Shown: one piece after another, positions 20,312-51,393 of the stretch
Layout of the letters: each line of letters opens with the position of its first letter
Position numbering within the stretch: the first letter of the stretch is position 1
DNA from: a virus
Virus genome (UHGV): UHGV-1370141
DNA: 64,000 nucleotides
Direction: 5' to 3' (one strand)
Program-made: the position numbers and the translations under genes
Notes under the pieces: generated by a model
What the model was told of the DNA's origin: nothing
Database searches by the model: none
What the model saw: the letters and a program-made list of their open reading frames with translations, nothing else

Positions 20312-20324
20312 GGAGAATTTTTTG

Positions 20325-24506: not shown

Positions 24507-24542
24507 GACAGGCTGCCTGCGGGCAGTTGTGTGTCCGTAGGT

Positions 24543-24581
24543 AACCCCTCCCTGTAATGGGGAGGGGTATCCATTTTATTT
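24543..24581 (+). terminator. Intrinsic terminator/attenuator between fiber genes
   Basis: Hairpin ACCCCTCCC-tgtaat-GGGGAGGGGT followed by TTTTATTT. Confidence 0.55.
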
Positions 24582-24601
24582 AAAAAGTAGGAGTCTTTAC
24601 G

Positions 24602-34003: not shown

Positions 34004-34025
34004 ATAATTAATGGAGTCACCTGCA

Positions 34026-37444: not shown

Positions 37445-37488
37445 TACCTACCTCCGTAAAGGAGGTAGGTAAACTTATTATTTTTTTG
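37445..37488. terminator. Intrinsic terminator between convergent blocks
   Basis: Hairpin CCTACCTCC-gtaaa-GGAGGTAGG then T-rich run ending TTTTTTT. Confidence 0.6.
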
Positions 37489-38040: not shown

Positions 38041-38089
38041 TATCTTAGGTCCTTAATAGAACAAGTTAGAGAAATATCGGGGGAGGTCA

Positions 38090-38099
38090 CCCCCCCCCC
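38090..38099. repeat. C10 homopolymer in conserved intergenic context TCA-C(n)-GATT
   Basis: Read directly; preceded by GGGGGAGG giving a G/C hairpin; about 50 nt upstream of 37510..38040 start. Confidence 0.8.
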
Positions 38100-38111
38100 G
38101 ATTTAACTTAC

Positions 38112-38648
38112 TTAGCCACCGACACCCGGCGCAGTGAAGCCATCAAGTTCACCTTCCAGACCGCCCAGTGCTACCTTCTCAGGAGCTGGGTTGGAATAAG
38201 TGAAAGTAGCAATAGTACCCGCCAGGAATTTAATGTGGCCATCGTTTACTTTGACAGTGTAAACTTTAGCACCGCTGTCGCCTTCGGATTTAACGATAGT
38301 GAGTTCGCTCTCTGCAAACGCGTCATCGACATAACCTTTAGTAACCATTTCTTTGTTCAGTTTGGTTACAATGGCAGAGTTTTCCAGATCGAGACTACCA
38401 GCTTGTTCGTAAGCTTTAGCACCGATCAGGTCTTGGGATGCCAGACGGATATAATGGAATTCTTTCTCGCCTTTGAAGTTCTGGCTTTCTGCCTTGGCGG
38501 TCAGTGTAATTTTGGTGTTACGACCAGCGTCTCCGCTGTGCGCTTCGACAGCACCAAAATCGACATCACCAACCGTCAGATTAGAAGCGGTTGCAGAGTT
38601 TTTAGCAATTACAGCTTCGATGAGCTGTTGTTTGAAGGCTTTAGCCAT
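38112..38648 (-). CDS. Hypothetical protein, paralog of 37510..38040
   Basis: ATG at 38648 has GAGG RBS (track start 38684 lacks one); C-terminal GELDGFTA. Confidence 0.55.
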   Translation of the reverse strand: MAKAFKQQLIEAVIAKNSATASNLTVGDVDFGAVEAHSGDAGRNTKITLTAKAESQNFKGEKEFHYIRLASQDLIGAKAYEQAGSLDLENSAIVTKLNKEMVTKGYVDDAFAESELTIVKSEGDSGAKVYTVKVNDGHIKFLAGTIATFTYSNPAPEKVALGGLEGELDGFTAPGVGG

Positions 38649-38786
38649 CTTTTTTACCTCGTAAGTGGTAGGGGTGGATTGCATAAGAAAGTTATTTTAG
38701 ACATTTCCTAAAATATAGATATGACGGTTGGCAGTAGGCGCTAACCTGAAAAAATAATTTTTCTTAATTTTAATAAGGGTGAGTTT

Positions 38787-39266
38787 ATGCTAAAACGCAT
38801 TCTCGTGGTCGTTGCTTTTGTAATGACGTTGGCAGGTTGTGCTATTCAGCCGAACGCAGAAGGTCAGTTCTCCACCGTACCTGTTGACCAACATGATATG
38901 GTCATTTACACCTGTACAGGTGCTTCTCAAGAATTCGTCGATTTTAAACCGGTACCGTCTAGCCTAAAACTGATGCCCCTTTCGGTGTTAGTCATGGATA
39001 CAGGGGCGAATTGGGTCGCTACATGGGACGAAGGTAAAATCGAATCTCCGCAACTTTATAAAGACCTGTTAGGTAAGGTGGACGGTAACTTAAACGTTGT
39101 TACCGGTGAGCGCTATTACCGTGTAAACGGGTTACTGTCAAAAACTCCAACGTTTGCGTATTCTACCATCAACTACAAAACAGGTGAAGGTAAAGGTGTA
39201 ACGTTCTTCAGATGTCACGAAGGTAGCATTCCGGATACCGGCACTATGCTGCACCCGGTAGAATAA
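38787..39266 (+). CDS. Lipoprotein (lipobox LAGC), isolated on opposite strand
   Basis: MLKRILVVVAFVMTLAGCA signal with lipobox; own terminator downstream. Confidence 0.6.
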   Translation: MLKRILVVVAFVMTLAGCAIQPNAEGQFSTVPVDQHDMVIYTCTGASQEFVDFKPVPSSLKLMPLSVLVMDTGANWVATWDEGKIESPQLYKDLLGKVDGNLNVVTGERYYRVNGLLSKTPTFAYSTINYKTGEGKGVTFFRCHEGSIPDTGTMLHPVE

Positions 39267-39269
39267 TAA

Positions 39270-39307
39270 ATACCCTCCTGCTTAGCAGGAGGGTAGGTTT
39301 ATTTTGT
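39270..39307. terminator. Bidirectional intrinsic terminator
   Basis: Hairpin ACCCTCCTGC-tta-GCAGGAGGGT then TTTATTTT; A/T-rich on both sides. Confidence 0.65.
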
Positions 39308-39386
39308 CCGTAGAACGCGCTAGAACGCGTTCTAAGACGGTTTATACAAAATAAGGTACAATCATCCTAAGTTTCGGTTTACGCGC

Positions 39387-39902
39387 TTAGATTTTAACTA
39401 AGGCGCTCCAATCGATAGGGCTTTGTTTCACGACTTTCGCAGTACCGCGATTCGGTGACCAGAACGTGATATTCGGTTGGTTACGAACGTCGATATGCAA
39501 CCAACTGATGTCGCATTCGATAAAGTGAATAAACGGAAACTCATCAGGATTAGCGGCAATATAATCGTGGACTTGTTTTACCGTTGAATCTAACAGTGTC
39601 GCGTCGAACGCATTACCGAACTTGTGCTGACTCCCTGAATCGGAATAGAGTTGTAACGCACGTTGTTTATAGTTACCGCCCTTAGGCTTTTCTTGATTGA
39701 TGAAAAAGTCTAAGGTTCTTAGGCCACGCTGTTGCGCAGCAGACGAGTTAATCACCATTCTGCCGAAACGGTTACGAATCTGTTGCAGCGAAATCATTAA
39801 CAACGGGTTCATAAACCGAATTGCAGAATCACCGTATTTGGCGATGTACGATTGCGGTACTAACTCTTTGAGTTTAAAGTTACTCGGATTTGGATGAAAC
39901 AT
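39387..39902 (-). CDS. Peptidase M15 (VanY / L-Ala-D-Glu peptidase-like) cell-wall hydrolase, putative endolysin
   Basis: SQHKFGNAFDATL matches M15 S.H..G.A.D zinc-binding motif; C-terminal WLHIDV. Confidence 0.55.
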   Translation of the reverse strand: MFHPNPSNFKLKELVPQSYIAKYGDSAIRFMNPLLMISLQQIRNRFGRMVINSSAAQQRGLRTLDFFINQEKPKGGNYKQRALQLYSDSGSQHKFGNAFDATLLDSTVKQVHDYIAANPDEFPFIHFIECDISWLHIDVRNQPNITFWSPNRGTAKVVKQSPIDWSALVKI

Positions 39903-40545
39903 CTTCCCTCCCAGACAGAAAAGCCCGTTTGATGTTCAGGTATTTGACATTAACGGGACAACCTGTGGTGATATCAACACGTTCGTGGTCAGGAATAGCA
40001 GGCTCCTTAAACTCACGAACGAACAAATAGTTTCGATTGTAATCTAACGTACGGTAATCGTTAGTGGTATAAGACGGCTTCGCGTTAGGGTCTACGTAAG
40101 CATCCCAACCGAACCCCGCCACGGCTTTATAAAACGTTTGGCAGATATACGGTGAGATTTCCAACGACTGCATAATACGCAGGAATGTTAAGTCAGAGAA
40201 CTCTTTATCGATAATACGCGAAACGTTACCACCCGGTGTCATGGGATAGCTACGCTCCGTGTTACATTTTTGATAGAGTAAGTCGTGAATGCAGGCCGCA
40301 GGTGCCCACGGTCCGTCAGGATGGAAAATTCCCTGGAGGTGTTCAGGAATTGACGCTAAATCGGTAACGAACCCTTTCGGTGCTGTTAACCACAGTTGCG
40401 TGTCAGGCAATACACCCGTTAAATAAACCGCACGGTCTAAGTGTACGTGGTCGTGATAAATCTCACGTAACGTAAACGGATAATGGTAATCCTCCGTTAA
40501 TACAAACCACTTATTGTCTAAACGTTTATATTGAAGCTTCTCCAT
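39880..40545 (-). CDS. Hypothetical protein
   Basis: ATG at 40545 with AAGGTG RBS (track GTG 40554). Confidence 0.5.
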   Translation of the reverse strand: MEKLQYKRLDNKWFVLTEDYHYPFTLREIYHDHVHLDRAVYLTGVLPDTQLWLTAPKGFVTDLASIPEHLQGIFHPDGPWAPAACIHDLLYQKCNTERSYPMTPGGNVSRIIDKEFSDLTFLRIMQSLEISPYICQTFYKAVAGFGWDAYVDPNAKPSYTTNDYRTLDYNRNYLFVREFKEPAIPDHERVDITTGCPVNVKYLNIKRAFLSGREDVSSKSE

Positions 40546-40661
40546 TACCCACACCTTTCCTTACAAAAACCAGAAGAACTCTTGCCCACGCTTTTCGTCT
40601 TTACGTTTTCGACCAGACGTTAACGCTTTCCACAATAACGCTAAGAGTTTAGCAAACCAGT

Positions 40662-41252
40662 TCATTTTACTAACCCCGCTTTTACCGCATAATCTGCCAT
40701 TTCTCTGAAGACGCGGCCGTACCAACCGTAGGTGTATTTCTCGTTTCTCTTACGTTTTTCGGAGATTTCCGTGTAGTAAGTTACTTGGTGCGAGATTAAC
40801 GCAAAGATTAAAATGCTCAACCCTTCATCTTTACGATATTTCAGGTAGGCGTTCAACGCACCCAGTGTCTTAGGACCCATACCGCCGTCGGTGTCAATAT
40901 CTGCGTAAAGTTTCCCTTCGTTATTTAAAACGTTGAGAATACGTTGTAACGATTTCACACAGTTAGCACGCCCTGCGTTAATACCAAAATCAAACATCCG
41001 GTCTGCGAGTAACGGTGAGATAGCGAAAATCTCATCAAGTTTGAGCTTCTTCCACCAACCGCGATCGTAAATATCAAACGCTTGTGCACGGGTGAGGTCT
41101 TTCATTTTCCCTGTGTAGCCGTATTCGCGTGCAGTAGTTAAAGTTACACCGTGACAGGTTTCTCCACCTTTGTCGTCAGGGTCGTTGACGTACCCGCCTT
41201 CTAAATCCGTTTTGGATTCAATAATACCTTCTTTAGTCCAACGTTCAGCCAT
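40662..41252 (-). CDS. Glycoside hydrolase family 108-like lysozyme with C-terminal peptidoglycan-binding domain
   Basis: N-terminal EGGYVNDPDDKGGETCHGVT typical of GH108; C-terminal DTDGGMGPKTLGALNAYL typical of PG_binding_3. Confidence 0.7.
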   Translation of the reverse strand: MAERWTKEGIIESKTDLEGGYVNDPDDKGGETCHGVTLTTAREYGYTGKMKDLTRAQAFDIYDRGWWKKLKLDEIFAISPLLADRMFDFGINAGRANCVKSLQRILNVLNNEGKLYADIDTDGGMGPKTLGALNAYLKYRKDEGLSILIFALISHQVTYYTEISEKRKRNEKYTYGWYGRVFREMADYAVKAGLVK

Positions 41253-41261
41253 TTTCGTTCA

Positions 41262-41312
41262 ACTCCTCTTTTACACAAAAAAGAAAAGAGGGTGGGGATT
41301 ACCCCCACCCTG
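41262..41312 (-). terminator. Intrinsic terminator
   Basis: Hairpin AGGGTGGGG-attac-CCCCACCCT then T-run on minus strand. Confidence 0.5.
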
Positions 41313-41315
41313 TAA

Positions 41316-41795
41316 TTATTTTTTCTTCTTAGCGCGTGATGGCTTAGCTGGCGGTGTTTCAACAGCCGGTTTACGTGCAACACGCACTGTAAAACCACCA
41401 ACCCAGGTCAGACACTCAGGACGGAAGAAAATACCGTGTTCGATTGCGCTACCGTCCAACGGTAACTCACCAACCTGTTCTACCCATACATCGTCTTCTG
41501 TAAGGGTTAGGCTATACTGTTCGTTAATTACGGGCAGTAGGTCAGCGGTAGTCGTTGCAGACTCCACTAACAGTTTCGGTAATACGTTCAGGAAATACAA
41601 ACCTGCGTCAATGCGGTTATACTGGAACGTTTGTTCGTTAGTGTAACCGAGATTCTTAATTGACGCAACTGTGATTTCGGTATTGTACGTACCGGTGGTT
41701 ACGACCGGGTCACCCAGCGTGACTTTGGTGGTGTCGAACTCAGCGTCTGGGTTAGCCTTTTTAATAAGGTCGAAGATAGTTTCTTGATTGGTCAT
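41316..41795 (-). CDS. Hypothetical protein (Lys-rich C-terminus)
   Basis: 159 aa; AGAGGA RBS; C-terminal PAKPSRAKKKK. Confidence 0.55.
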   Translation of the reverse strand: MTNQETIFDLIKKANPDAEFDTTKVTLGDPVVTTGTYNTEITVASIKNLGYTNEQTFQYNRIDAGLYFLNVLPKLLVESATTTADLLPVINEQYSLTLTEDDVWVEQVGELPLDGSAIEHGIFFRPECLTWVGGFTVRVARKPAVETPPAKPSRAKKKK

Positions 41796-41808
41796 TACTG
41801 TAATCCTC

Positions 41809-42657
41809 TTAATCTAAGAATCCCGGTAAGACCGGATTAGTCTGCGCTAATTCAATCTTCGACTTCGGACGATCGGTGCCGTTAAAGTGGATTAACAGAT
41901 TACCGGTCAGGTTAGAACACAGCGGGCTGAGCGTCAGCACCAACACACGCGTGAACTTCGTATTTGCGCCTTCGTAACCTGCGGTTGGACCATCGTAAAT
42001 AATCTTCGCACCATACAGGTTGTTAGCCGCGTTCTTAGGTACACTTACCCATTTCTCATCAACGACGTTAGCCAGTTTAGTGGCTAACTCAGCCAGGTCG
42101 ACGGTGTCGTTGATAGTAATCGGGTCAAGGTAATCTTTTTCTGCGGTGAAATCAATCGGGTGAGAATAAACCGCAGCGTTACCTTTCTTAGTAGACGGAT
42201 ACTCTACCAGATTCTCTAATTGAGTAACTGGTAACAGTTCAGTCAGGTCAATAGGATCACGCAGCGTAAGTGTTACTACACCGCACCACTCGTAAGATTT
42301 CTCGTTAGCGGTAAGCTGATGGGTTTCACCTTCAACTTTTGCGTCAACGATATCCGAGGGTAAAATATTTAGGTTGTATTTTGCGTTAATCGCATTAAGC
42401 AAATCCGATGCGGTTACCACACTGTCGTTACCGAACACCAACTCACCGGTTAGGTAGTCAGGTAAATTACGACGGTGGTAAGTCACGGTTAAAGTAGTAG
42501 ACTCATCGCCTTTGAGTTTAGAGGTCAGAACCACCTGGGTATCAACCCCAGTACCGGTAGGTTCTCCGATATCAACATCACTGAAAGTCAACGGTGGACT
42601 AATATTGTTTTCAGTGTTGATGAGTTTTAGCAGTTTCTGTTTTGACGTAAGAGACAT
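41809..42657 (-). CDS. Hypothetical protein
   Basis: 282-aa ORF. Confidence 0.55.
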   Translation of the reverse strand: MSLTSKQKLLKLINTENNISPPLTFSDVDIGEPTGTGVDTQVVLTSKLKGDESTTLTVTYHRRNLPDYLTGELVFGNDSVVTASDLLNAINAKYNLNILPSDIVDAKVEGETHQLTANEKSYEWCGVVTLTLRDPIDLTELLPVTQLENLVEYPSTKKGNAAVYSHPIDFTAEKDYLDPITINDTVDLAELATKLANVVDEKWVSVPKNAANNLYGAKIIYDGPTAGYEGANTKFTRVLVLTLSPLCSNLTGNLLIHFNGTDRPKSKIELAQTNPVLPGFLD

Positions 42658-42769
42658 CGCGTTAACTCACAGTAAGTAAAAAGGTTTAAGAGGTCGTTTT
42701 ACATCCCTCAGCCAGCATAGGAATAGTCGGGTAGGGTGTAAGTAAAGCGGTGTCAAAATAACAAAAAAG

Positions 42770-42816
42770 AAAAGGGAAAGAAAATTAATTCCGCTATAGA
42801 CCGAAGCCTATAGCGG
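42770..42816 (-). terminator. Intrinsic terminator
   Basis: Perfect 9-bp hairpin CCGCTATAG-accgaagc-CTATAGCGG next to stop of 42824..43255, T-rich downstream on minus strand. Confidence 0.5.
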
Positions 42817-42823
42817 AGAGTGG

Positions 42824-43255
42824 TTAGCGAACGTTGTGTGCTAAGTACATTAGCGTACGGGTGTCGATATCACGAGAAGTTTGTGACATTTGGTTCAGTA
42901 GAGTGCTGGCAGTAGGGTCGTTGTAAACACGACTTAACCACTCGTCAACCATTTCTGGTACAGTGTCGACTAAAAGCGGATAGTTAAGATTTTCCAGTGT
43001 GTATTCAACGAATTCGTGCATCAGATTCTGGTCACGATGCATAGTGTCACCTAACTCACCTACAGGGTACTCTTCACGAGGACGTTTACCCCAGCTACAG
43101 ATGTGCATGTAGTTAGTATTCACAATTTCTTGATATTCTTCTAACTTAACTAAATCGAAGTCAGTATTTGGACGACAGAAACCTGCTAAAACGCCTAAAG
43201 CAATCGGATTGTTACGAATGTAGTTACGGATATCATCTTTTAATAGGAAAAACAT
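42824..43255 (-). CDS. Hypothetical protein, paralog of 44521..44952
   Basis: LKDDIRNYIRNNPIALGVLAGF vs LKLELRDYIRKYPASIPVLASL. Confidence 0.55.
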   Translation of the reverse strand: MFFLLKDDIRNYIRNNPIALGVLAGFCRPNTDFDLVKLEEYQEIVNTNYMHICSWGKRPREEYPVGELGDTMHRDQNLMHEFVEYTLENLNYPLLVDTVPEMVDEWLSRVYNDPTASTLLNQMSQTSRDIDTRTLMYLAHNVR

Positions 43256-43271
43256 TTTAATGCTCCTTTAG

Positions 43272-43308
43272 GTAAATACAATAATAGAGGGGTGGATTAC
43301 CACCCCTT
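43272..43308 (-). terminator. Intrinsic terminator
   Basis: Hairpin AGGGGTGG-atta-CCACCCCT then T-rich on minus strand. Confidence 0.5.
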
Positions 43309-43331
43309 GGTTGAATTTAGAACGTCGTTAA

Positions 43332-44498
43332 TTAACGACGTTTTTGACAATTAGGGCAGTTGCAACCTACGCCAGAAGATATTTCTCTAAAGTACGCGTC
43401 GAGTAAGTGCTCGTTATTATTAAGAAAACGAACTGACCACAAGTCACGCAGATGAGTTTTTAACTTTCCAATAATACCGGGTTCATAGTTGAGTAGAATG
43501 GTAAGTGCGTTGTCTGTGTAAGTCCACTGACGGACTTTCTCAGGAAACCAACGAGTGATATCACGCATAAACGTATCGGCATCTTCTTTCCCAATAGCAG
43601 TGATTGTCAGAAGACGTAGACGGTTGTTAACAAACTCATCAATGAGACTATGAATTTCTTCTTCAAAAGCAATGTTCCACCATTTCCATTTAAAGGTGAG
43701 TTTTTCGCCCTCGAGTTTGGTCTCTACCTTGGTAGAATAGAATGCTGTCAAAGTGTCATTAATCGCTTCGGCATCTGGACCAGTGTATGTAAAGGCTTTC
43801 AACACATCGGACTCTTCACGCGGTTGCTCCCCTTCTTCGAGTTGGTTAAGAAAAATTTTCTTTGTTAACTTACGCATACAGATGTTCAATTGATTAATAA
43901 CAACAGGGTCATTATCAACAATCACTGTTAAAGTATCGCCAACATAATTAGACTGGCGAATTTTCTCCTTGTGTTCGTGAACAACTATACGCATGAATTC
44001 GTCCGCTTCACCTTTTCCGATACCTTGAAACGAAATAAGACGAACGGTGTCGTTATCGATCATCTCAGCGACAGAACGTACTTCTTCCATGAGGTTACGA
44101 TCGTCTTTCTTCAATCGAACGACGAGTTTGCTGTTATCCCAGTAAATGCCTAAATCGTCGGGATAGAAGGTCTCTAACGCCTCTTTAATATCCTTAATCT
44201 TTTCGCCTTCGTACCAGAGGACGTGCGGTTCGTCTTTCTGCTGCTCTTCGACTTTCGGTTGTTCAGTCTCGGCCGTTTCTACCGGGTTGAGCAACTCACC
44301 GATTTCCACCGCGATAGTGTCGCAAAGATAATCGTTGCAGTGAGTCCAGTAGAACACGATGCTTTCATCATTGACCTGCTCTACGCGGAAATGTACACCT
44401 TTATCCAGGAATATACGATAAAGTTGATCGAGTAACTGTGCTTCAGGAACCGGACGGATTTCGGTTTTAACGAGCGGTGTAATCTCGATATTATACAT
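43332..44498 (-). CDS. Hypothetical protein with internally repeated domain and C-terminal CxCPxC
   Basis: Two similar segments (...GKGEADEFMR... / ...GKEDADTFMR...) also related to 48200..49042; ends GVGCNCPNCQKRR. Confidence 0.55.
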   Translation of the reverse strand: MYNIEITPLVKTEIRPVPEAQLLDQLYRIFLDKGVHFRVEQVNDESIVFYWTHCNDYLCDTIAVEIGELLNPVETAETEQPKVEEQQKDEPHVLWYEGEKIKDIKEALETFYPDDLGIYWDNSKLVVRLKKDDRNLMEEVRSVAEMIDNDTVRLISFQGIGKGEADEFMRIVVHEHKEKIRQSNYVGDTLTVIVDNDPVVINQLNICMRKLTKKIFLNQLEEGEQPREESDVLKAFTYTGPDAEAINDTLTAFYSTKVETKLEGEKLTFKWKWWNIAFEEEIHSLIDEFVNNRLRLLTITAIGKEDADTFMRDITRWFPEKVRQWTYTDNALTILLNYEPGIIGKLKTHLRDLWSVRFLNNNEHLLDAYFREISSGVGCNCPNCQKRR

Positions 44499-44520
44499 GT
44501 CAATTTTCCTTTTTGGTAAA

Positions 44521-44952
44521 TTATTCGTAGTTGTGCTTAAGGAACTCTAAAGCACGTTGGTCATTGGTTAATGCTACTGCCGACATTTTCTTTAAGGCTT
44601 GACGACAGTAAGCGTCACTCACAATACGTTGTTGCCAAGCATTGACAATTTCCGTAACGGTTTCTCCTTCTACAGCCGTATTGAGTTTATCGATAAAGTG
44701 ACGTCCCATCAGATACGCAACTGCGTAGTCCGTGAACATCTCTGTACCGAAATCACCGTCTGGGTAGTCAGCACGTTTCCGCACTGACATATCGGTAACG
44801 ATTTGATACGACGACTTCACCACTTCGTGGAATTTTTCTACCGTTAAGGTGTTAAGGTCCATACCCGATAAAGAGAGTGAAGCCAGTACCGGAATACTGG
44901 CTGGGTATTTACGAATGTAATCACGCAACTCTAATTTCAGTTCTTTGCTCAT
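44521..44952 (-). CDS. Hypothetical protein, paralog of 42824..43255
   Basis: ATG at 44952 with GGTGAG RBS (track GTG 44964). Confidence 0.5.
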   Translation of the reverse strand: MSKELKLELRDYIRKYPASIPVLASLSLSGMDLNTLTVEKFHEVVKSSYQIVTDMSVRKRADYPDGDFGTEMFTDYAVAYLMGRHFIDKLNTAVEGETVTEIVNAWQQRIVSDAYCRQALKKMSAVALTNDQRALEFLKHNYE

Positions 44953-44957
44953 TGAAC

Positions 44958-45431
44958 TCACCACTTATATTCAAACAAATAGCTGGAGAAAACATCGGCG
45001 AAATTTTCTAAATCATCGGTGTCAATCAAATCCAATCCTTTATTCAGAGATCCTAGCCATGTACCGTCGTAGCAAACTGCCATTACAGAATGGCGAACTT
45101 TTAGTTTACCGTCATTAGTAAATGAACGTTCACCGTTCTCGCCCGCCTCGTAGCGTTCCCCATTGTCAGCCAAGATAACCAGTTTGTCTAACGGGATGAA
45201 AGCGTCCATTACAACAAAGTCATAACGTGCAGTGACATGATTGTCGGTTACAGTTAAACGTTCAATAATGTAAAGGTTTGAATCACGTTTCAGCTCTTTG
45301 CTTTTTCTCCATCCATTCTTAATCAGCGAAAAAGCATCGCTTCTGCCAGTAAACAGATCTTTAATTTTATAGGTTTTTTCTACTGAATGGAAAGCGGCAT
45401 GAACGTTGCTGTTGATTTCTAAGCTAAACAT
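44958..45431 (-). CDS. Hypothetical protein
   Basis: 157-aa ORF. Confidence 0.55.
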   Translation of the reverse strand: MFSLEINSNVHAAFHSVEKTYKIKDLFTGRSDAFSLIKNGWRKSKELKRDSNLYIIERLTVTDNHVTARYDFVVMDAFIPLDKLVILADNGERYEAGENGERSFTNDGKLKVRHSVMAVCYDGTWLGSLNKGLDLIDTDDLENFADVFSSYLFEYKW

Positions 45432-45479
45432 ATTCTATTCCTTATATACAAGTCGAAGAGTTAATGTGTTAATTTTCGT

Positions 45480-45974
45480 TTAGAGATGTTTTTCGATAAC
45501 TTCCGAAACTAATTCGTAAAGGTCATCGTCGCTGCACACTTCTACACTAATTCCGATATCGATACTACGACTACGGAACCCAACTTTGAGCGATTTACCG
45601 AACTCGGTTTGAAAGGCTTTATAGAGGATGTTCTTATCTTCTTCTGTGAGGCGAACAGGTAGTCTAACGGTGAACTTGTAATGTTCTTTCGAAACAAGTT
45701 CGTTGGAATAATTGAGTCGTTTGGCTCCACGCGTTCCGACAATCTGTGTTACCAGCTTAAACATTTCCTCGTCGGTATACGCTGTTGCGCTATAACCGAT
45801 ATCGATAGTGTTTCTGCGGAAACCTGCGCAGAACAAAGCACCGAACTGTTCACGGAATTCTTTGTACAGGACGTCTTTTTCTACGTCCAGTAATCCGTAA
45901 CCCAAGTCAACAGTAAATTTGTATTTTTCTTTGTCAACCAATTCATTAGTGTAATCAAGTCTAGTGAAGTTCAT
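45480..45974 (-). CDS. Hypothetical protein made of two tandem ~80-aa repeats
   Basis: LDYTNELVDKEKYKFTVDL...FRRNTIDIGYS vs LNYSNELVSKEHYKFTVRL...FRSRSIDIGIS. Confidence 0.55.
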   Translation of the reverse strand: MNFTRLDYTNELVDKEKYKFTVDLGYGLLDVEKDVLYKEFREQFGALFCAGFRRNTIDIGYSATAYTDEEMFKLVTQIVGTRGAKRLNYSNELVSKEHYKFTVRLPVRLTEEDKNILYKAFQTEFGKSLKVGFRSRSIDIGISVEVCSDDDLYELVSEVIEKHL

Positions 45975-46019
45975 GGTATATGCTCCTAAAATGGTTTTAG
46001 TTAAGTGAGAGCTTTCGTA

Positions 46020-46045
46020 CTCTCACCTAAGTAATATATATCTGA
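46020..46045 (-). promoter_or_regulatory. Conserved 26-bp promoter-like motif, copy 3 of 4
   Basis: Minus strand TCAGATATATATTACTTAGGTGAGAG about 50 nt upstream of 45480..45974. Confidence 0.4.
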
Positions 46046-46056
46046 AAATATTTTAA

Positions 46057-46338
46057 TTAAAACCCAGCAATAAAACTGCCTAATGAAAGACGCTGTAAGT
46101 ATTTTGGCTTACGTGCCAGGTAACAGTTCTTAGGATTACCTATCGCCATCTGTGCAACCGCACGTTCTAAACGCGGTGCTTCTAAGATAGCACGATAGTT
46201 CCCTTCGTAATGCATTAACCATGCACACTCTTCAACAAAACGTTTTGCTTCTCGGTATTCTAACGTACGAATACGTTTCTTACCACGATACAAAACCACA
46301 TCACCATTACTACGAAATACAACCGTTTCACGATTCAT
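46057..46338 (-). CDS. Hypothetical protein
   Basis: Track gives GTG at 46395; internal ATG at 46338 reduces overlap; start uncertain. Confidence 0.4.
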   Translation of the reverse strand: MNRETVVFRSNGDVVLYRGKKRIRTLEYREAKRFVEECAWLMHYEGNYRAILEAPRLERAVAQMAIGNPKNCYLARKPKYLQRLSLGSFIAGF

Positions 46339-46624
46339 TGATTTTACCCCATAATTCTCGCCGTAAAACTTGTTTATACATATCGACCTGAGCACGACAA
46401 TCTTTTGTGGCCTTCTCTAGTATTAAAAAACCAGCTTCTTTTGGCAATTTCTCCTCGCAAATGTACTCGGTAATAGCACAAAGCTTGTAATAAAGCTCTA
46501 GCTGTTCCCTGAGCGATTTTTCCTGCACTTTAATTAATTCATCTTGCTTAGCAATAACCTTTTCATTAACTTCGCAGACAGGACATTTCTTACGTTTAAA
46601 TAGCCGAATTAGTTTAAAAACCAT
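46328..46624 (-). CDS. Hypothetical protein (CPVC motif)
   Basis: ATG at 46624 with GGTGG RBS (track TTG 46642). Confidence 0.45.
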   Translation of the reverse strand: MVFKLIRLFKRKKCPVCEVNEKVIAKQDELIKVQEKSLREQLELYYKLCAITEYICEEKLPKEAGFLILEKATKDCRAQVDMYKQVLRRELWGKINES

Positions 46625-46922
46625 TATCGCCACCGTTTGCAATCCAGGTTGCTACACGAACGTGTGCACTGTGAAAGTTAGAGACTAAGAGTATTACACC
46701 ACCTAACGTACGTGGAACGCGTAAGGCTTCGAAACGACGACAGTAAGAACGTACACAATACTCAGAACCTAAGATAACGATTTCGCAGTATTCTGAACGA
46801 ATCGGCAGTAGTTGAGAAACGAGTTTATCACACGTTTCTTTGTTGTCTTCTAATAACCCGCCACTGAGAATATAGTTGACGATGTTCTCAGGTGCCGATG
46901 TGTTTGCGATTTTATTTTCCAT
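46614..46922 (-). CDS. Hypothetical protein
   Basis: 102 aa; AGGAG RBS. Confidence 0.5.
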   Translation of the reverse strand: MENKIANTSAPENIVNYILSGGLLEDNKETCDKLVSQLLPIRSEYCEIVILGSEYCVRSYCRRFEALRVPRTLGGVILLVSNFHSAHVRVATWIANGGDNGF

Positions 46923-46924
46923 CG

Positions 46925-47314
46925 TTAAACTCCTATAGTGATCTCCGTGATGTGCATTCTTCGCATCTCACGAGTCATTCTGTCTATTGCCCGTTGACAT
47001 TCGAATAAATTGTCGTAGTATTTCTGGGCAGTAACGTTGAATATAATCCGACCTTCTTTCAATTGTTTAGCAACGACTTTTGTAGTTTCCGATTCAAACA
47101 GCAGACCACCTTCCCTGCCAATCTTAACTAAAACGTCACGAATAGCAACGTTTATAAGCTCGCCATTTGGGGAAACCACGATTTCCGTATACCAGTCGCC
47201 CTCACTAACGATACGTTGTACCCTTTCACCGCATAGCCAGTTTTTGACTTTCCCATTGACGAATAATTGGGCCTTTAGTAACAAACGTCTTTTTAAGTAA
47301 GATAAACGCATCAT
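46925..47314 (-). CDS. Hypothetical protein
   Basis: ATG at 47314 with AAGGTG RBS (track GTG 47323). Confidence 0.5.
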   Translation of the reverse strand: MMRLSYLKRRLLLKAQLFVNGKVKNWLCGERVQRIVSEGDWYTEIVVSPNGELINVAIRDVLVKIGREGGLLFESETTKVVAKQLKEGRIIFNVTAQKYYDNLFECQRAIDRMTREMRRMHITEITIGV

Positions 47315-47357
47315 GCAAATCACCTTATCTCCCTCGGGAAAACCGAGGGAGTGCTAA

Positions 47358-47639
47358 TCACAGTTTCTCTTCTATTGTATCGATTCGAACTAACGCATCG
47401 TGACTGACTTTACGTGCGTGTCCAATCGTACTACCTAAAGCTTTTGTTGTTGGGTCTAAGGTATTCAGACGGTGATACTGATAATCGATATCTCGTATAC
47501 AACGCGCCTGTTGTTTTACCATCCGAATTAATTGTCGTTTGGTCTGACGATTGTTACTAAGTTCCTGTCGTAATCGCGTGTTTTCTTTATAAAGCTCCTG
47601 TTGACGTGTGTTAATTAAACCCAACAACCAATCTAACAT
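47358..47639 (-). CDS. Hypothetical coiled-coil protein
   Basis: 93 aa; GGGGGT RBS. Confidence 0.5.
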   Translation of the reverse strand: MLDWLLGLINTRQQELYKENTRLRQELSNNRQTKRQLIRMVKQQARCIRDIDYQYHRLNTLDPTTKALGSTIGHARKVSHDALVRIDTIEEKL

Positions 47640-47641
47640 TT

Positions 47642-48157
47642 TTACCCCCTGTGCAAGAAAATGCGGTTAGTGTTTTCGAATTTCGGTTCTGTCCACTCTA
47701 GTTCCCAGTAAGCCTGGTTAATATCGCGAGACGTGAGTTTCAAATTCGAAACACCGGGGATATCGATCTGTTGCAGTAAATTAATAATCGTCACCAGCTC
47801 TTTACGAGGACGGTTCCAGATAACTTCAAGATACTCTTTCAGACGTTCTGGGTAAGCAACGGGGCGAATATAGACTAGCCCAGAAGGATACTCAATTGCT
47901 GAGGGTGTTCTTGGCACTAACCAAACCCAGTCTTTTAATAGCGGTCCTGGGTGATAATTCGAGAGTTGGGTAAGCGCGTTCGCGACGGAACAACAGCGAA
48001 AATACATGATGTCCCAGTCTTTTTCGAAACAATTACGTGCGACCAGGACCTTTAGCTTATCGATAGGTTTACCGTCAATCGTAGTAACACCTGGCTGATT
48101 AGCCAAGATTTGACGTTCACGTTTGGTATAAAGATTCATGTTGATTGTTACAGACAT
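47642..48157 (-). CDS. Hypothetical protein
   Basis: 171 aa; AAGGAG RBS. Confidence 0.55.
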   Translation of the reverse strand: MSVTINMNLYTKRERQILANQPGVTTIDGKPIDKLKVLVARNCFEKDWDIMYFRCCSVANALTQLSNYHPGPLLKDWVWLVPRTPSAIEYPSGLVYIRPVAYPERLKEYLEVIWNRPRKELVTIINLLQQIDIPGVSNLKLTSRDINQAYWELEWTEPKFENTNRIFLHRG

Positions 48158-48199
48158 TTAATGCTCCTTTAGGTAAATAGTGGGGTAATTAAGCCTTCG

Positions 48200-49042
48200 T
48201 TATTTAAGATTCCGAACTTCTCTCATCTCGTTACAAAATCTATCAAACAGCTGGGCGTATTCGCCAACGTGAGCTTCTAGCTGTCCAAAAAAGTGGCGTG
48301 AAAGTCGTTCGCTGATTTCTTTTTCGTATTTCTTGAGAACGTGTTTAAAATATTCACCGTCTCTCTTAATTTTCTGCGCAAGGGGTTCCAGAACTTTAAG
48401 AACCCATGGTTTGTTTGGGATCAAGAGATTCAGGTTACCTTCAAGATATTTGCTTTGATAAATTATAAATAGATGGTGTTCGTGTTCATCTTTCACTGCG
48501 CGAATAAACTCGGCAGCATCGGCCTCGCTAATATCCTCAACTGTAAATAGCAGAATATTTTCTTTCTCTATGTCATTCAATAGGTTATTTAAAAAAGCGC
48601 GATAAGTAGCACCTTCATAGTTCACTTTAAGCACGTTGTTTTCAACCAGATAAGTGAATTTGTCGTTGTAAAAAAGGTATAATATCGAACCGATTTTACC
48701 TGCCTGTTTGGGGGTAAGTGGAATCTCGTCTGTGAAGTAAGCGACGTCTTTCGCAGTTGGCTTGTCTTTTAGCCTACAAGTCATTTGATCCGGAATTTCT
48801 GGATCTTTAGGCGTCTCAACAGCCCGTACTAAAATATCCATAACCGCACTAATGAGCTTGTTAGGGAAATCGACCTCGCCTTCTACCCAGAAAATGTTAA
48901 ACGCTTCTGATTTAACTTTATAGTAAAACGTGTATGTGTTTTGTAGCTCAGTGATTTCTTTAATTTGATCCTCAGTAGGGATAGGGGAAATTTTAAACTT
49001 GTTGATAACCTTTTCTTCTTCGGTGAGTTCGAACTGAAACAT
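48200..49042 (-). CDS. Hypothetical protein (domain shared with 43332..44498)
   Basis: 280 aa; AAGGAGG RBS; EADAAEFIRAVKDEHEHHL segment. Confidence 0.55.
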   Translation of the reverse strand: MFQFELTEEEKVINKFKISPIPTEDQIKEITELQNTYTFYYKVKSEAFNIFWVEGEVDFPNKLISAVMDILVRAVETPKDPEIPDQMTCRLKDKPTAKDVAYFTDEIPLTPKQAGKIGSILYLFYNDKFTYLVENNVLKVNYEGATYRAFLNNLLNDIEKENILLFTVEDISEADAAEFIRAVKDEHEHHLFIIYQSKYLEGNLNLLIPNKPWVLKVLEPLAQKIKRDGEYFKHVLKKYEKEISERLSRHFFGQLEAHVGEYAQLFDRFCNEMREVRNLK

Positions 49043-49053
49043 GCTACTCCTCC

Positions 49054-49497
49054 TTAAATCATTGCTGGGAATTCGAAATCAATCTTATTTACGATCCCGT
49101 AATCTTCTTTTAGTTGAATGTTTAATGTTCCCTGAAATAACTCAAGAGAACCGATGAAGAACGCTGTGTAGCAGTTTCCACGAACAGAAAAGGCAAGATC
49201 CAATCCCCTTAAACAGCGTTTTAAGGTATCGTGTTCTTCTTTACTACCGAACAACTGGAAATTGATAACGGTAATCTGTTTGTTAATGATTGCCATTAAC
49301 CAATTTTTAATTCTTTTCGTGGTTATACTCTCTTTAAAATCGTTAGCTTCTGGTAGCCAACTAACGTGAACAAACGGAGCGGCATAATCCACGCGAACCT
49401 TTTGCTGCCAACGTACTTGCATCAAACCACGAATACGATTTGCTAACGTTTCAGAATCACAAAGTAGCATAATGCCATTAGTAGTATTTGGTTTCAT
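49054..49497 (-). CDS. Hypothetical protein
   Basis: 147 aa; AAGGAAGGA RBS. Confidence 0.55.
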   Translation of the reverse strand: MKPNTTNGIMLLCDSETLANRIRGLMQVRWQQKVRVDYAAPFVHVSWLPEANDFKESITTKRIKNWLMAIINKQITVINFQLFGSKEEHDTLKRCLRGLDLAFSVRGNCYTAFFIGSLELFQGTLNIQLKEDYGIVNKIDFEFPAMI

Positions 49498-49563
49498 AAT
49501 TGTCCTTCCTTCTTAATGTACTCTTCAACTCAGCTATAACTAGTGGAGTGAACGTAATTTTCA

Positions 49564-49589
49564 CTCTCCCCTAGGTAATATATATCTGA
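49564..49589 (-). promoter_or_regulatory. Conserved 26-bp promoter-like motif, copy 4 of 4
   Basis: Minus strand TCAGATATATATTACCTAGGGGAGAG about 65 nt upstream of 49054..49497. Confidence 0.4.
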
Positions 49590-49636
49590 GAAAAAATAAA
49601 AAAGGTAGTAGGGGCTAAGCCCCTACTACCTAAAAT

Positions 49637-50257
49637 TTATTTCATTCCGTTCTGAGAAAGTGTTGTCCCTGCAAGATGCTTAATAACGATCTTGACAGGC
49701 AAATTACTATTCTCGTACTGTACTTCGGTTTCAGACAAATCGGTGATATCGACAACTTTAGAAGGTACTTTCGCTAAGACAACCCGAATGGTGTGGGTTA
49801 TCGTACTGGCTGTGGTCTTTGTATTACTAATGTAGAAGTACGCATCAATAATACCGCCGTCTTCTGCCAGATAAACCAATTTATTTTCCAACAGACACTG
49901 GGTATAAATTGACACTCCAGATAATTGCGAAATCCCCAGTCTATTATTAACGTCAACTGTTGTTTTGCAGATTACCGCACCACCTGTCAACGTTTTTTCT
50001 ACCACCATATTTCCCGATAAGGTTTTTGCATCCATTTTTGGTACAATCGGATGAGTGCCGTCAACAAACAACCCATCGCTGTTAGACTTAAGGATGTTAT
50101 TCGCCGACGGACTCACTGTAACCTCGCCACCCCCTAATTTCTCAATCGGGAGTTGGTATTCAGTTTGTTCCTTAGACGCTAAGACTACTACACCCGTGAT
50201 GTCTTCTGAAAGTGTCTCCAGTTCATGAATGCGCACCTTTCCTACCAGTTCAGCCAT
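49637..50257 (-). CDS. Short receptor-binding / fiber protein with conserved N-terminal anchor domain
   Basis: N-terminus MAELVGKVRIHELETLSEDITGVVVLASKEQTEYQLPIEKL matches N-termini of 52032..56513 and 59597..60058. Confidence 0.55.
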   Translation of the reverse strand: MAELVGKVRIHELETLSEDITGVVVLASKEQTEYQLPIEKLGGGEVTVSPSANNILKSNSDGLFVDGTHPIVPKMDAKTLSGNMVVEKTLTGGAVICKTTVDVNNRLGISQLSGVSIYTQCLLENKLVYLAEDGGIIDAYFYISNTKTTASTITHTIRVVLAKVPSKVVDITDLSETEVQYENSNLPVKIVIKHLAGTTLSQNGMK

Positions 50258-50772
50258 TAGTGGCCTCCGAATGTTAAGACACGGTTATCTGCGGTAACGA
50301 TTAAATCGTTGTCTTTTACTACAGCGGCTTCTTCATCGTTACCGAAAACCAGAACGGAGAATTGGCCTTTATAACCTAACGAGTTGGGTGAAACCTGTAA
50401 CGTTACAGCGTCTTTCCCTACGGTAAATGATTCGTCGGTAAGATCGTCGGGTTGTAAATTACAACCACAAGCCGCGTTAATTCCGTCGATTAGATCGTGT
50501 GCGGTAAAGCCATTACCGGAAACCTTTACCAGAATAGGTTGCTGGTTTAACCACCGCTCTGCGGTTAAACGGTTGTAATAAATCTGTAACGTTCTGTTGT
50601 CCGGACGTTTTATCTTTACAACAGCAGTGGTGTCACGATCCATTTCGTTACTGGTCTTTACGTCGCTGACTTCAACCTCGTTCTCTTGCAGGTCGAGCTG
50701 GAGGTCATGGTTAACCAGTGAAATAACCATGTTAAGTGAAGTTAACGACAAATCTGGCGTGAATTGTTCCAC
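50257..50772 (-). CDS. Hypothetical protein, paralog of 60024..60587
   Basis: GTG start with GGAGGT RBS; N-terminus FTPDLSLTSLNMVISLVNHD vs YVPDLSLTSAELVVALINHD; TAATG overlap with downstream gene. Confidence 0.55.
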   Translation of the reverse strand: MEQFTPDLSLTSLNMVISLVNHDLQLDLQENEVEVSDVKTSNEMDRDTTAVVKIKRPDNRTLQIYYNRLTAERWLNQQPILVKVSGNGFTAHDLIDGINAACGCNLQPDDLTDESFTVGKDAVTLQVSPNSLGYKGQFSVLVFGNDEEAAVVKDNDLIVTADNRVLTFGGH

Positions 50773-50827
50773 GTATGGTTACCTCCTATGATTGGGGAGA
50801 CGTAAAATGTTGGCTAAAAACATTTCA

Positions 50828-50836
50828 CCCCCCCCC
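50828..50836. repeat. C9 homopolymer in conserved intergenic context TCA-C(n)-GATT
   Basis: Read directly; about 55 nt upstream of 50257..50772 start. Confidence 0.8.
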
Positions 50837-50870
50837 GATTACGTTTTCAAGCACACTCGCTTGAAAATTA

Positions 50871-51377
50871 TTAACTGATTTTGAAATCTCTTAACGTACC
50901 AGTTGATCTCATCACGTTTTGAAAAGCAGTGCTGATGTTATTAGTCCAGTAGTAATGCTGTCCGTTAATAACCTGCTGATAGGTCAGTGCGCAAGTGTTA
51001 CCGCCTAGATTTACAGTGATGTTAGAGGCCCTGCCGCCTTGTAAGTAAACCGCTAAACTAGGCCTTGCGTTGCCAACTACCGTCGTTAACTGTAATTCGA
51101 TACCTACTAAAGTTCCCACCCCGCAGTTACCCGCGTTTTGAATGGTCCCCTGATTTTTCTGGTTTAACGGCCAATTTGGTCCTACTGCGCCCCATTTCTT
51201 ACCTAAAGAATCTCTATATGCGGCAGTTGCAATTTTACAGCCCATAGATCTTCCCACCATTTGACTCATCATAAAAGGTCTACTCAATCCTAATTTACTA
51301 CCCGCAGCGCTCATCCACTGTTCGCCCGTTTCATTCCTAGCTGAAGATCCGACCCATCCTGACGCTACCCCCCCCAT
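50871..51377 (-). CDS. Putative fiber-tip adhesin-like protein (paralog of 51394..52032 N-terminus)
   Basis: AAGGAGGG RBS; N-terminal GWVGSSARNETGEQWMSAA shared with neighbour; G8 run spans the start codon (ATGGGGGGGG). Confidence 0.5.
   Translation of the reverse strand: MGGVASGWVGSSARNETGEQWMSAAGSKLGLSRPFMMSQMVGRSMGCKIATAAYRDSLGKKWGAVGPNWPLNQKNQGTIQNAGNCGVGTLVGIELQLTTVVGNARPSLAVYLQGGRASNITVNLGGNTCALTYQQVINGQHYYWTNNISTAFQNVMRSTGTLRDFKIS
51368..51375. repeat. G8/C8 homopolymer overlapping the start codon of 50871..51377
   Basis: Plus strand C8 at 51368-51375 = minus-strand ATG-GGG-GGG-G. Confidence 0.8.
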
Positions 51378-51393
51378 CTACCCTCCTTTTTAA

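Follow-up and report, generated by a model that had tools for sequence, protein, structure and literature searches.

Three G/C homopolymer tracts in an enterobacterial jumbo phage: probable hairpin arms between genes and a candidate frameshift switch in an adhesin gene

Why would a phage genome that otherwise avoids runs of G or C carry three long ones, two of them between genes and one across the start codon of an adhesin gene? The initial annotation offered phase variation of a receptor-binding component, a shared regulatory element, or polymerase-slippage hotspots as explanations. Our analysis favors, with reasonable though not strong confidence, two kinds of tract: the intergenic ones (sites 1 and 2) as arms of RNA hairpins in which length is buffered, and the coding one (site 3) as a candidate switch of an adhesin.

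The phage and its G/C runs

The window, the whole 64-kb stretch of DNA that was analyzed, comes from an uncultured SPN3US/phiKZ-like enterobacterial jumbo phage of ~225 kb and 45% GC, known from human gut metagenomes in which contigs of about 225 kb contain the same phage. Its PHROG and DNA matches point to SPN3US, phiEaH2, and Asesino, and relatives have been deposited as 222-kb "plasmid" records of E. coli and Enterobacter isolates. Phages of the SPN3US/phiKZ type transcribe their genes with their own RNA polymerases. All three tracts lie within a late structural gene cluster and are G-runs on the minus strand, which is the coding strand (Table 1).

Only three G/C runs of at least 6 nt occur in the window, and these are the C10, C9, and C8 runs (plus strand) of the initial annotation, each at the position given there. 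First- and third-order Markov simulations predicted 7 to 10 runs of 6 to 7 nt, where 0 were observed, and 0.3 to 0.5 runs of at least 8 nt, so that the three present amount to about 7 to 10 times the expectation; three such runs were reached in 1 to 2 of 200 simulations. The genome had been called poor in homopolymers, and this holds for G and C but not for A and T, whose runs are about as frequent as expected. In a complete relative of 221,873 bp, G/C runs longer than 6 nt are found only where sites 1 and 2 have their homologues. Homopolymer lengths in assemblies may be miscalled, one contig (L016) being visibly error-prone, and the "plasmid" records of isolates may be long-read assemblies.

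Table 1. Positions of the three tracts and of neighboring features in the window
Feature	Positions	Strand	Evidence
DUF7941 virion-protein paralogue, 176 aa, downstream of site 1	37510..38040	-	
Site 1 hairpin, terminator-type: AUCGGGGGGGG-GGUGA-CCUCCCCCGAU, then AUAUUUCUCU	38076..38102	-	Terminator scan, folding
Site 1: G10 tract, 5' arm of intercistronic hairpin	38090..38099	-	
DUF7941 virion-protein paralogue, 190 aa, upstream of site 1	38112..38684	-	
DUF7941 paralogue, 171 aa, GTG start, downstream of site 2	50257..50772	-	
Site 2 hairpin: G-run pairs with UCUCCCC around inner 10-bp stem	50794..50836	-	Folding
Site 2: G9 tract, 5' arm of bipartite hairpin	50828..50836	-	
Separate 9-bp hairpin, UUUUCAAGC...GCUUGAAAA, directly after adhesin 2 stop codon	50844..50867	-	Folding
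Adhesin 2, 168 aa: Gp38_N fiber-docking domain and C-terminal domain of about 125 aa	50871..51377	-	
Site 3: G8 tract, candidate frameshift switch in adhesin 2	51368..51375	-	
Shine-Dalgarno sequence of adhesin 2, AAGGAGGG, 4 nt before ATG	51381..51388	-	Sequence reading
Adhesin 1, 212 aa: canonical Gp38_N and glycine-rich GP38, Krischvirus-like	51394..52032	-	
Long tail fiber, 1493 aa, gp37-type C terminus; expected dock for adhesins	52032..56513	-	

Hairpins at the two intergenic tracts

The context TCA-C(n)-GATT described for C10 and C9 is confirmed by the sequence and reads AATC-G(n)-TGA on the minus strand. The distance to the next minus-strand start, given before as about 50 to 55 nt, is 49 nt at site 1 (to the ATG at 38040) and 55 nt at site 2 (to the GTG at 50772). 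At site 1, the G-run folds into an 11-bp stem with one G·U pair, 9 nt past the stop codon of the upstream gene (TAA, 38112-38114), with a folding energy of -23.3 kcal/mol (z = -2.7). A terminator scan recovered this hairpin as one of about seven similar hairpins with a GC stem and a T tail in the cluster; with 5 of 8 positions being U, its tail is above the scan threshold yet weak as a U-tract. Homologues in nine contigs have G9, G10, or G11, uninterrupted runs are always of at least 9 G, the 3' arm and tail are invariant, and the G-run folds onto the C-run in 6/6 variants. In the cultured relatives CR5 and Stratton the slot is occupied by ordinary terminator hairpins, and the same holds for other DUF7941 genes in the window. 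Site 1 may thus be a factor-independent terminator or a 3'-end stabilizer.

The stem at site 2 is bipartite (7 + 10 bp), begins 34 nt past the adhesin 2 stop codon (TAA, 50871-50873), and has a folding energy of -24.6 kcal/mol (z = -5.7). A Shine-Dalgarno sequence, GGAGG, follows 7 nt past the hairpin. Folding is alike in all 11 site 2 variants, the G-run being paired with the C-run. Compensatory changes include GGAGGGGG/CCCCCU and GGGGGAG/CUCCCC, and the inner stems also differ. Interrupted or short runs (GGAGGGGG, G5, or G6) are tolerated provided that the 3' arm matches. No U-tract was found 3' of the stem, where the sequence is AAUCAUAGGAGG, and because of this the label of terminator is weak here; site 2 is probably an mRNA-structure element of the same type as site 1 without the U-tract. 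The separate 9-bp hairpin next to it is also conserved in relatives with compensatory changes. No match to Rfam 15 was obtained at the gathering score anywhere in the window.

At both sites the G-run pairs, with the help of G·U pairs, with a C-rich 3' arm that is shorter and does not vary (CCUCCCCC at site 1, CUCCCC at site 2). Across about 12 assemblies the G-runs vary (G9 to G11 or interrupted) and the 3' arms are constant. Between the window and an assembly from another sample (L001), the sole difference over 20,507 bp is one indel in the site 2 tract, G10 in L001 and G9 in the window. As the G-arm is longer than the C-arm, slippage during replication would change only the size of the loop, and lengths could therefore drift between G9 and G11 without effect. 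The predicted stem energy reaches a plateau from 9 G up, and for that reason the length variation at sites 1 and 2 looks neutral. The proposal of slippage hotspots thus fits these two sites, which we do not take for switches. That of a shared regulatory element is right insofar as both tracts provide an arm of similar RNA hairpins, but there is no sign of regulation by tract length.

The tract at the start of adhesin 2

At site 3 the sequence reads ATG GGG GGG GTA, and the run spans the G of the start codon and codons 2 to 4 of adhesin 2, as the initial annotation had seen. The "adhesin-like" label given to this gene is well founded, since its product matches Pfam PF21721 (Gp38_N) with 67.6 bits, compared to 52.9 bits for adhesin 1 (cutoff, 25). 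Adhesin 1 also matches PF05268 (GP38) with 154 bits. For adhesin 2, no PF05268 match, no PDB sequence match, and no significant fold match was found. As a match to the GP38 specificity domain is absent, adhesin 2 is best classed as a Gp38_N-containing "short gp38" (PHROG 1121) and not as a canonical gp38. The two proteins are 53% identical, and this identity is confined to the docking domain. Members of the adhesin 2 family are the sole gp38 in T4-like phages of Edwardsiella, Klebsiella, and Kosakonia, and in one relative (L005) a member directly follows the fiber gene. Adhesin 1 lacks a 51-aa block found in relatives.

It had been pointed out that a slip of one nucleotide would put the gene out of frame. 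In silico simulation agrees with this: G5, G8, and G11 give full-length adhesin 2, G7 gives MGG followed by a stop, and G9 gives a 13-aa peptide. Nearly all adhesin 2 homologues begin with MGV, encoded by ATG GGG GT (G5), and are always in frame. The expanded tract is found in a subclade of three strains only. The window strain has G8, in frame, in five of five assemblies, and the two others have G9, out of frame, for which each of them also appears to be fixed. In one of these (L013), a TAA codon lies immediately upstream of the G9 tract in the adhesin frame, and the ORF shows no interruption along 166 codons; its codon differences from the window are 18 synonymous and 5 nonsynonymous. Two gene calls, P0018 (187 aa, ...EGRWGGVASGW) and P0022 (147 aa, from Met22), correspond precisely to the ORFs expected from tracts that are out of frame; the tract length for P0018 was inferred from the protein sequence, and P0022 was placed in the L013-type strain by sequence identity. 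The L013-type call is found in several assemblies, as P0022 in 3 contigs and also in SKEP01000003. Out-of-frame alleles are confined to expanded tracts and absent among the many G5 alleles. Both are +1, whereas G7 was not encountered. Adhesin 1 is retained in the strains with out-of-frame adhesin 2.

The adhesin 2 ORF beyond the tract is under purifying selection in the out-of-frame strains. Site 3 looks like a contingency locus of the kind known from Campylobacter and T-even phages. The usual G5 of the family would have expanded to G8 in the window lineage, and slips of one G may then turn adhesin 2 off or back on, so that a virion would carry at its fiber tips either adhesin 1 alone or both adhesins mixed. 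The apparently fixed lengths per strain fit rapid phase variation but equally well frameshifts that occur rarely in evolution. The data show the anatomy and conservation of the tracts, their length polymorphism, and natural alleles in and out of frame, and we infer termination at the hairpins, reversible switching of site 3 within a population, and any effect on host range. Phase variation of a receptor-binding component, suggested for the tracts in general, is thus supported for site 3, with natural G9 alleles and an intact ORF in two strains, and not for sites 1 and 2. The comparison with related genomes that had been recommended revealed variable tract lengths, apparently neutral at the intergenic sites and with in-frame and out-of-frame alleles at the coding one.

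Alternative readings, known systems, and implications

A reading in which slippage left all three tracts as by-products without function, and in which the out-of-frame adhesin 2 alleles reflect one-way loss of an accessory gene or homopolymer miscalls in assemblies, seems rather unlikely to us. The apparently fixed length of site 3 within each strain would agree with this, as would the exclusively +1 alleles and the selection that generally acts against SSRs in coliphage tail fiber genes, and adhesin 2 could be dispensable in strains that have adhesin 1. Gene loss or miscalls account poorly, however, for an out-of-frame ORF that has remained intact with an 18:5 ratio of synonymous to nonsynonymous differences, for the restriction of such alleles to the expanded tract, for the repeated L013-type call, and for the persistence of the site 3 tract although G/C runs of 6 to 7 nt are purged genome-wide.

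Two further readings concern the intergenic tracts. That these act as phase-variable regulators, their length tuning terminator read-through or a promoter spacer and with it expression of the downstream DUF7941 gene, is very improbable to us. Both tracts share one sequence context and precede paralogous genes by 49 to 55 nt, their lengths differ between strains, and terminator strength reportedly depends on stem length in a phiKZ-like phage. Yet the predicted stem energy hardly changes between G9 and G12, all uninterrupted site 1 runs have at least 9 G, site 2 accepts interrupted or short runs, sigma-70 promoters are not enriched (26 found versus 30.9 expected), and phages of this type rely on their own RNA polymerases. 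It is also improbable that the hairpins act as DNA, as recombination junctions at module boundaries or as recognition sites of a protein or nuclease promoting the shuffling of adhesin and paralogue cassettes. Site 2 does lie exactly where a highly variable adhesin module meets the conserved DUF7941 gene, the hairpin is retained while the upstream sequence types A and B are wholly different, and the C terminus of the gene upstream of site 1 varies between relatives. In addition, AATC is conserved 5' of both G-runs, and at site 2 the pairing of the stem does not account for it. Nevertheless, owing to its G·U pairs the sense RNA gains 6 to 7 kcal/mol in stability over the antisense strand or a DNA cruciform, where these pairs become A·C mismatches, compensatory changes keep the pairing and not the sequence, and relatives carry ordinary terminators in the same slot.

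Tentatively, one can go further and imagine a phage of the nucleus-forming type that hedges its host range. Slippage in the polyG tract would stochastically switch the second adhesin, which would compete with the constitutive gp38 for the docking site and give one lysate with mixed tips, and runs of G9 to G11 would be tolerated only where buffered in RNA hairpins, G/C runs being purged elsewhere.

A close known case is Fletchervirus of Campylobacter, whose receptor-binding genes have hypermutable polyG tracts of 7 to 11 G (Sorensen et al. 2021 Cell Rep; cited in PMC12823448, bioRxiv 10.1101/2025.10.21.683753). Both have a G-homopolymer in a phage receptor-binding gene, and there a frameshift produces subpopulations with and without the protein. 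The window differs in coming from an enterobacterial phiKZ/SPN3US-like jumbo phage of 45% GC that otherwise avoids G/C runs, in that its only coding tract lies right where the gene begins, and in that the candidate switched gene encodes a second gp38-type tip adhesin whose docking domain also occurs in a constitutive adhesin; here, both switching and phenotype are predictions. In T2, T4, and other phages, homopolymer SSRs of at least 6 nt are contingency loci (Gomez, Barrick & Waters 2025, bioRxiv 10.1101/2025.10.21.683753), where slippage likewise gives reversible frameshifts and bet-hedging and intergenic SSRs vary too. Those loci are mostly A/T runs in defense-evasion genes (agt, rIIA), in contrast to polyG in an adhesin gene, and the same study found SSRs underrepresented in tail fiber genes. 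With the gp38 of the T2/T6/S16 type (Trojet et al. 2011, PMC3157838), both window adhesins share the N-terminal attachment domain (Gp38_N), adhesin 1 also shares the glycine-rich GP38 specificity domain, and the order of fiber and then adhesin is the same. Unlike that type, the window has two tandem adhesin genes in a jumbo phage that is not T-even, and adhesin 2 has a beta-rich C-terminal domain instead of the glycine-rich one. Conserved stem-loop terminators are numerous in phiKZ-like phages, with 132 terminators, 52 of them intrinsic, in 201phi2-1 (PMC11512511). Stable GC-rich stem-loops between codirectional structural genes are common to both phages, and the site 1 tail is weakly U-rich. 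In contrast to 201phi2-1, the stems here consist of a G-homopolymer and a C-rich arm with G·U pairs, their predicted -23 to -25 kcal/mol is stronger than the reported range, site 2 is without a U-tract, and the terminators are predictions.

The hairpins call for caution, as a long homopolymer may differ in length between strains and yet be buffered by structure and have no phenotype. If site 3 switches at a useful frequency, polyG contingency loci in receptor-binding genes would extend beyond the Campylobacter phages to a human gut jumbo phage with E. coli, Salmonella, or Enterobacter as host. Prediction of host range from genomes would be affected, since gene callers report out-of-frame alleles as odd proteins of 147 or 187 aa, and this may also be relevant to the design of phage therapy. 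Such a locus would be a simple and testable way for one phage stock to have two states of host recognition.

Long G-runs in a genome that avoids them

The three tracts reported by the initial annotation, two intergenic (sites 1 and 2) and one at the start of the gene for adhesin 2 (site 3), were found where it had placed them on the plus strand. Because all genes around them lie on the minus strand, they are sense-strand G-runs, and the 64-kb window has no other G/C run of at least 6. In simulations that preserved the di- or tetranucleotide content of the window, 7-10 G/C runs of 6-7 were expected and none was observed, and 0.3-0.5 runs of at least 8 were expected against three observed, a number reached in 1-2 of 200 simulations. 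A/T runs occurred at about the expected frequency, so the earlier description of a homopolymer-poor genome holds for G/C but not for A/T. These counts therefore indicate a G/C-specific avoidance of homopolymers, to which the three long runs are the exceptions. In a complete relative of 221,873 bp the only G/C runs above 6 are the elements of sites 1 and 2. The 222-kb relative NZ_CP173450.1 (loci L023-L027) has four G/C runs of length 6 and lacks any of 7-8. The three-tract observation is thus confirmed and non-random.

The tracts recur at the same sites in more than 10 independent assemblies, for which reason an origin as sequencing artefacts was rejected; G-quadruplex formation was rejected because each site has a single G-run. 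Homopolymer-length errors in assemblies are possible, and the tract lengths and extra tracts of contig L016 (CYGL01000001) were discounted, since it is clearly error prone, with frameshifts in conserved genes. It carries an additional coding-region G10 at 1763-1772 (…ELQGGGVTEPDYY…), in a gene that the window lacks, and a C10 at 6045-6054, about 25 nt upstream of another gene; given these frameshifts, both may be unreliable.

Features of the window and their coordinates
Feature	Position	Strand	Remarks
Long tail fibre	52032-56513	-	gp37-type C-terminus
Adhesin 1	51394-52032	-	Gp38_N + GP38; 80-90% DNA identity to Krischvirus gp38
Adhesin 2	50871-51377	-	Gp38_N docking domain, 67.6 bits; PHROG 1121 'tail fiber adhesin'
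Site 1 tract	38090-38099	+	C10
Site 2 tract	50828-50836	+	C9
Site 3 tract	51368-51375	+	C8
AATC at site 1	38100-38103	-	directly 5' of the G-run
AATC at site 2	50837-50840	-	directly 5' of the G-run
Late-gene hairpins	49603-49631, 39271-39295, 41289-41311, 42790-42817, 37445-37471, 43288-43307		strong GC stem, T-rich tail
Three successive giant virion structural proteins	15986-29785	+	1441, 1394, 1727 aa; PHROGs 7557, 8078, 7449
Two adjoining radical-SAM-type genes	34011-36255	+	PHROG 1802 for 34933-36255

By PHROG and weak DNA matches (71-76% DNA identity at best), the window belongs with SPN3US, phiEaH2 and Asesino among the phiKZ-like jumbo phages, and these searches returned no close cultured relative. 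By exact-protein look-up, the same phage is present in contigs of about 225 kb from human gut metagenomes, and an ERZ919760 contig (run ERR414475) is 100% identical to the window across a locus of 15,210 bp (L002). Relatives are present in IMG/VR and in WGS metagenome contigs. Two circular, complete 222-kb 'plasmid' records, one from E. coli isolated from urine and one from an Enterobacter ludwigii gull isolate (NZ_CP173450.1, L018, and NZ_CP134650.1, L019), are also relatives, and family proteins occur in Salmonella and Shigella isolate assemblies, a pattern suggestive of pseudolysogeny or a carrier state in cultured isolates. E. coli 98232 and E. ludwigii 51A:C are strains that carry relatives. 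The paralogous giant virion proteins have N-terminal and central segments in common. The radical-SAM-type pair, located within the structural region, is kept in the E. coli and Enterobacter records.

Hairpins at the two intergenic sites

The common context AATC-G(n)-TGA noted earlier for sites 1 and 2 was confirmed by reading the sequence. At site 1, the sense RNA folds as AUCGGGGGGGG-GGUGA-CCUCCCCCGAU, an 11-bp stem with one G·U pair (-23.3 kcal/mol) that is followed by AUAUUUCUCU, and a terminator scan finds it together with six more GC-stem/T-tail hairpins in the same gene cluster. Nine distinct contigs have an invariant 3' arm, CCTCCCC(C)GAT, and tail, GATATTTCT, a TGA or TAA loop, and a G-run of G9 (four contigs), G10 (four) or G11 (one); two further relatives are without the element. 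Exact-protein look-ups with two neighbours of site 1, and with the window's own 147-aa ORF from a downstream start in adhesin 2, returned no record.

Site 2 forms a bipartite hairpin: pairing of the G-run with UCUCCCC encloses an inner stem of 10 bp (-24.6 kcal/mol, z = -5.7). Ahead of it, immediately behind the stop codon of adhesin 2, lies another hairpin of 9 bp. Among relatives, five genomes have G9 or G10, two have GA+G7 or GA+G10, two have GGAGGGGG, and GGGGGAGGGG, G6 and G5 occur in one each. Each of these runs is accompanied by a C-arm that matches it (CUCCCC, CCCCCU, CCCCC or CCCCCC), and the inner stem covaries. As G-run indels blurred the MAFFT/RNAalifold alignment, we folded the sequences individually, and all 11 variants took the same fold, at -17 to -24.6 kcal/mol. 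No U-tract was found at this hairpin, and we infer a role as a pause site, processing site or stability element. The AATC is kept in nearly all relatives at both sites; at site 2 it lies outside the stem, so pairing does not account for its conservation, and it may serve as a processing site or a motif for recognition.

Both hairpins lie just upstream of paralogous virion-protein genes of the DUF7941 family. The sense strand folds better than the antisense strand by 6-7 kcal/mol, owing to G·U pairs, and this gap favours a structure in RNA over a cruciform in DNA. When we varied tract length in silico, stability climbed to G9 at both sites and stayed flat from G9 to G12. As the G-arm exceeds the C-arm in length, a slip alters only the loop, and tract length above 9 is predicted to be energetically neutral. 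High mutability of the tracts is seen in two independent samples of the window phage, which differ across 20,507 bp by a single indel, in the site 2 tract (G10 versus G9).

The cultured relatives CR5 and Stratton have an ordinary GC-stem/U-tail hairpin at the corresponding intergenic position, and other DUF7941 genes in the window also have classic terminators upstream. In phiKZ-like phages, many conserved stem-loop terminators lie between structural genes (PMC11512511). The tabulated late-gene hairpins stand between late genes, and several of them are so palindromic that they score on both strands, which suggests bidirectional terminators. No Rfam family was matched. A sigma-70 promoter reading was rejected, as a scan gave no enrichment and this phage group has its own RNA polymerases. 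Sites 1 and 2 would then be lineage-specific versions of intercistronic terminator or stabiliser hairpins, with a G-arm that is a slippage hotspot whose length is buffered by the structure. The earlier suggestion of polymerase-slippage hotspots is borne out here by the G9-G11 runs of relatives and the one-indel sample pair. Slippage hotspots such as these, buffered by the structure of terminator-type RNA hairpins, are an ordinary arrangement with little that is new.

A probable second fibre-tip adhesin

The long tail fibre gene is followed by adhesin 1 and adhesin 2, which have only the docking domain in common (53% identity across 38 residues). This Gp38_N-type domain fixes gp38 to the fibre tip (PMC3157838). 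The C-terminal ~125 residues of adhesin 2 matched no Pfam family, PDB sequence or fold: a PDB sequence search gave a chance-level match only, and Foldseek of an AlphaFold model of moderate confidence (pLDDT 62) against the PDB gave nothing below E = 0.17. In Stx prophages and an SSU5-like phage-plasmid, members of its family carry the annotation gp38 or tail fibre adhesin; in some T4-like phages they are the sole gp38. In the related locus L005 adhesin 2 directly follows the fibre gene, without adhesin 1. On these grounds, adhesin 2 is most likely a genuine alternative adhesin of the fibre tip.

With 212 aa, adhesin 1 of the window is shorter than its 263-aa counterparts in the related contigs L013, L007 and L008, which have an additional in-frame block of ~51 aa (one glycine-rich/hypervariable unit). 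A shortened adhesin 1 thus occurs with an in-frame adhesin 2 in the window, and a full adhesin 1 with an out-of-frame adhesin 2 in L013; in two strains, this pairing is no more than a hint.

Alleles at the start of adhesin 2

As described before, the adhesin 2 ORF opens ATG GGG GGG GTA, and the run of eight counts the G of the ATG. This ATG is preceded, 4 nt away, by a strong Shine-Dalgarno sequence, AAGGAGGG. In simulated tracts G5, G8 and G11 give the full-length protein, G7 gives MGG-stop and G9 a 13-aa peptide. Nearly all family proteins begin MGV(A/T)SGW (ATG GGG GT, G5) or MAV without a tract, all in frame. The expanded tract is confined to three strains, in the closest subclade of the window. 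The window strain is G8 and in frame in all five assemblies. L013 (SKEP01000003, 224,834 bp) is G9 and out of frame, with a TAA immediately upstream in the adhesin frame. P0018, a family protein from a Salmonella Enteritidis assembly, contains …KKEGRWGGVASGW…, the ORF predicted for G9, its out-of-frame tract length being read back from protein rather than DNA. Another family protein, P0022 (147 aa, three contigs), is identical to the L013 ORF from Met22 on, as expected of a gene call on that allele. Ahead of the ATG, L013 (3500-3525) has GGAGGGTATAATG in place of GGAGGGTAGATG, a change that yields the TAA and a perfect TATAAT hexamer. P0002 (ENA contig, 1547 bp) is a 183-aa variant of adhesin 2 with a frameshift near the 3' end; it reads through into the downstream hairpin region and ends …NRGGG, the result of either an assembly error or a further indel allele.

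The simplest rival explanation is a rare, one-way frameshifting of a dispensable accessory adhesin. Each strain is apparently fixed at one site 3 length, and pattern scans across site 3 returned only already known contigs from IMG/VR and none from GTDB genomes. Out-of-frame alleles are found only where the tract is expanded, and the L013 ORF is otherwise intact, with 18 synonymous and 5 non-synonymous codon differences from the window, so it is under purifying selection and not a decaying pseudogene. Judged from the alleles compared, the tract states have the comparative signature of a contingency locus.

Phase variation of a receptor-binding component, as proposed earlier, is therefore favoured at site 3 by the G8/G9 alleles but not at the buffered hairpins of sites 1 and 2, and a single explanation for all three tracts gives way to one for sites 1 and 2 and another for site 3. 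The closest precedents are the polyG tracts of 7-11 G that Fletchervirus phages have in their receptor-binding proteins, as cited in PMC12823448 and bioRxiv 10.1101/2025.10.21.683753, and the contingency loci of T2/T4 (bioRxiv 10.1101/2025.10.21.683753). Site 3 is a credible candidate for a polyG on/off switch on a second gp38-family adhesin, which would be of the same kind as these known loci, here in a new host group and phage lineage.
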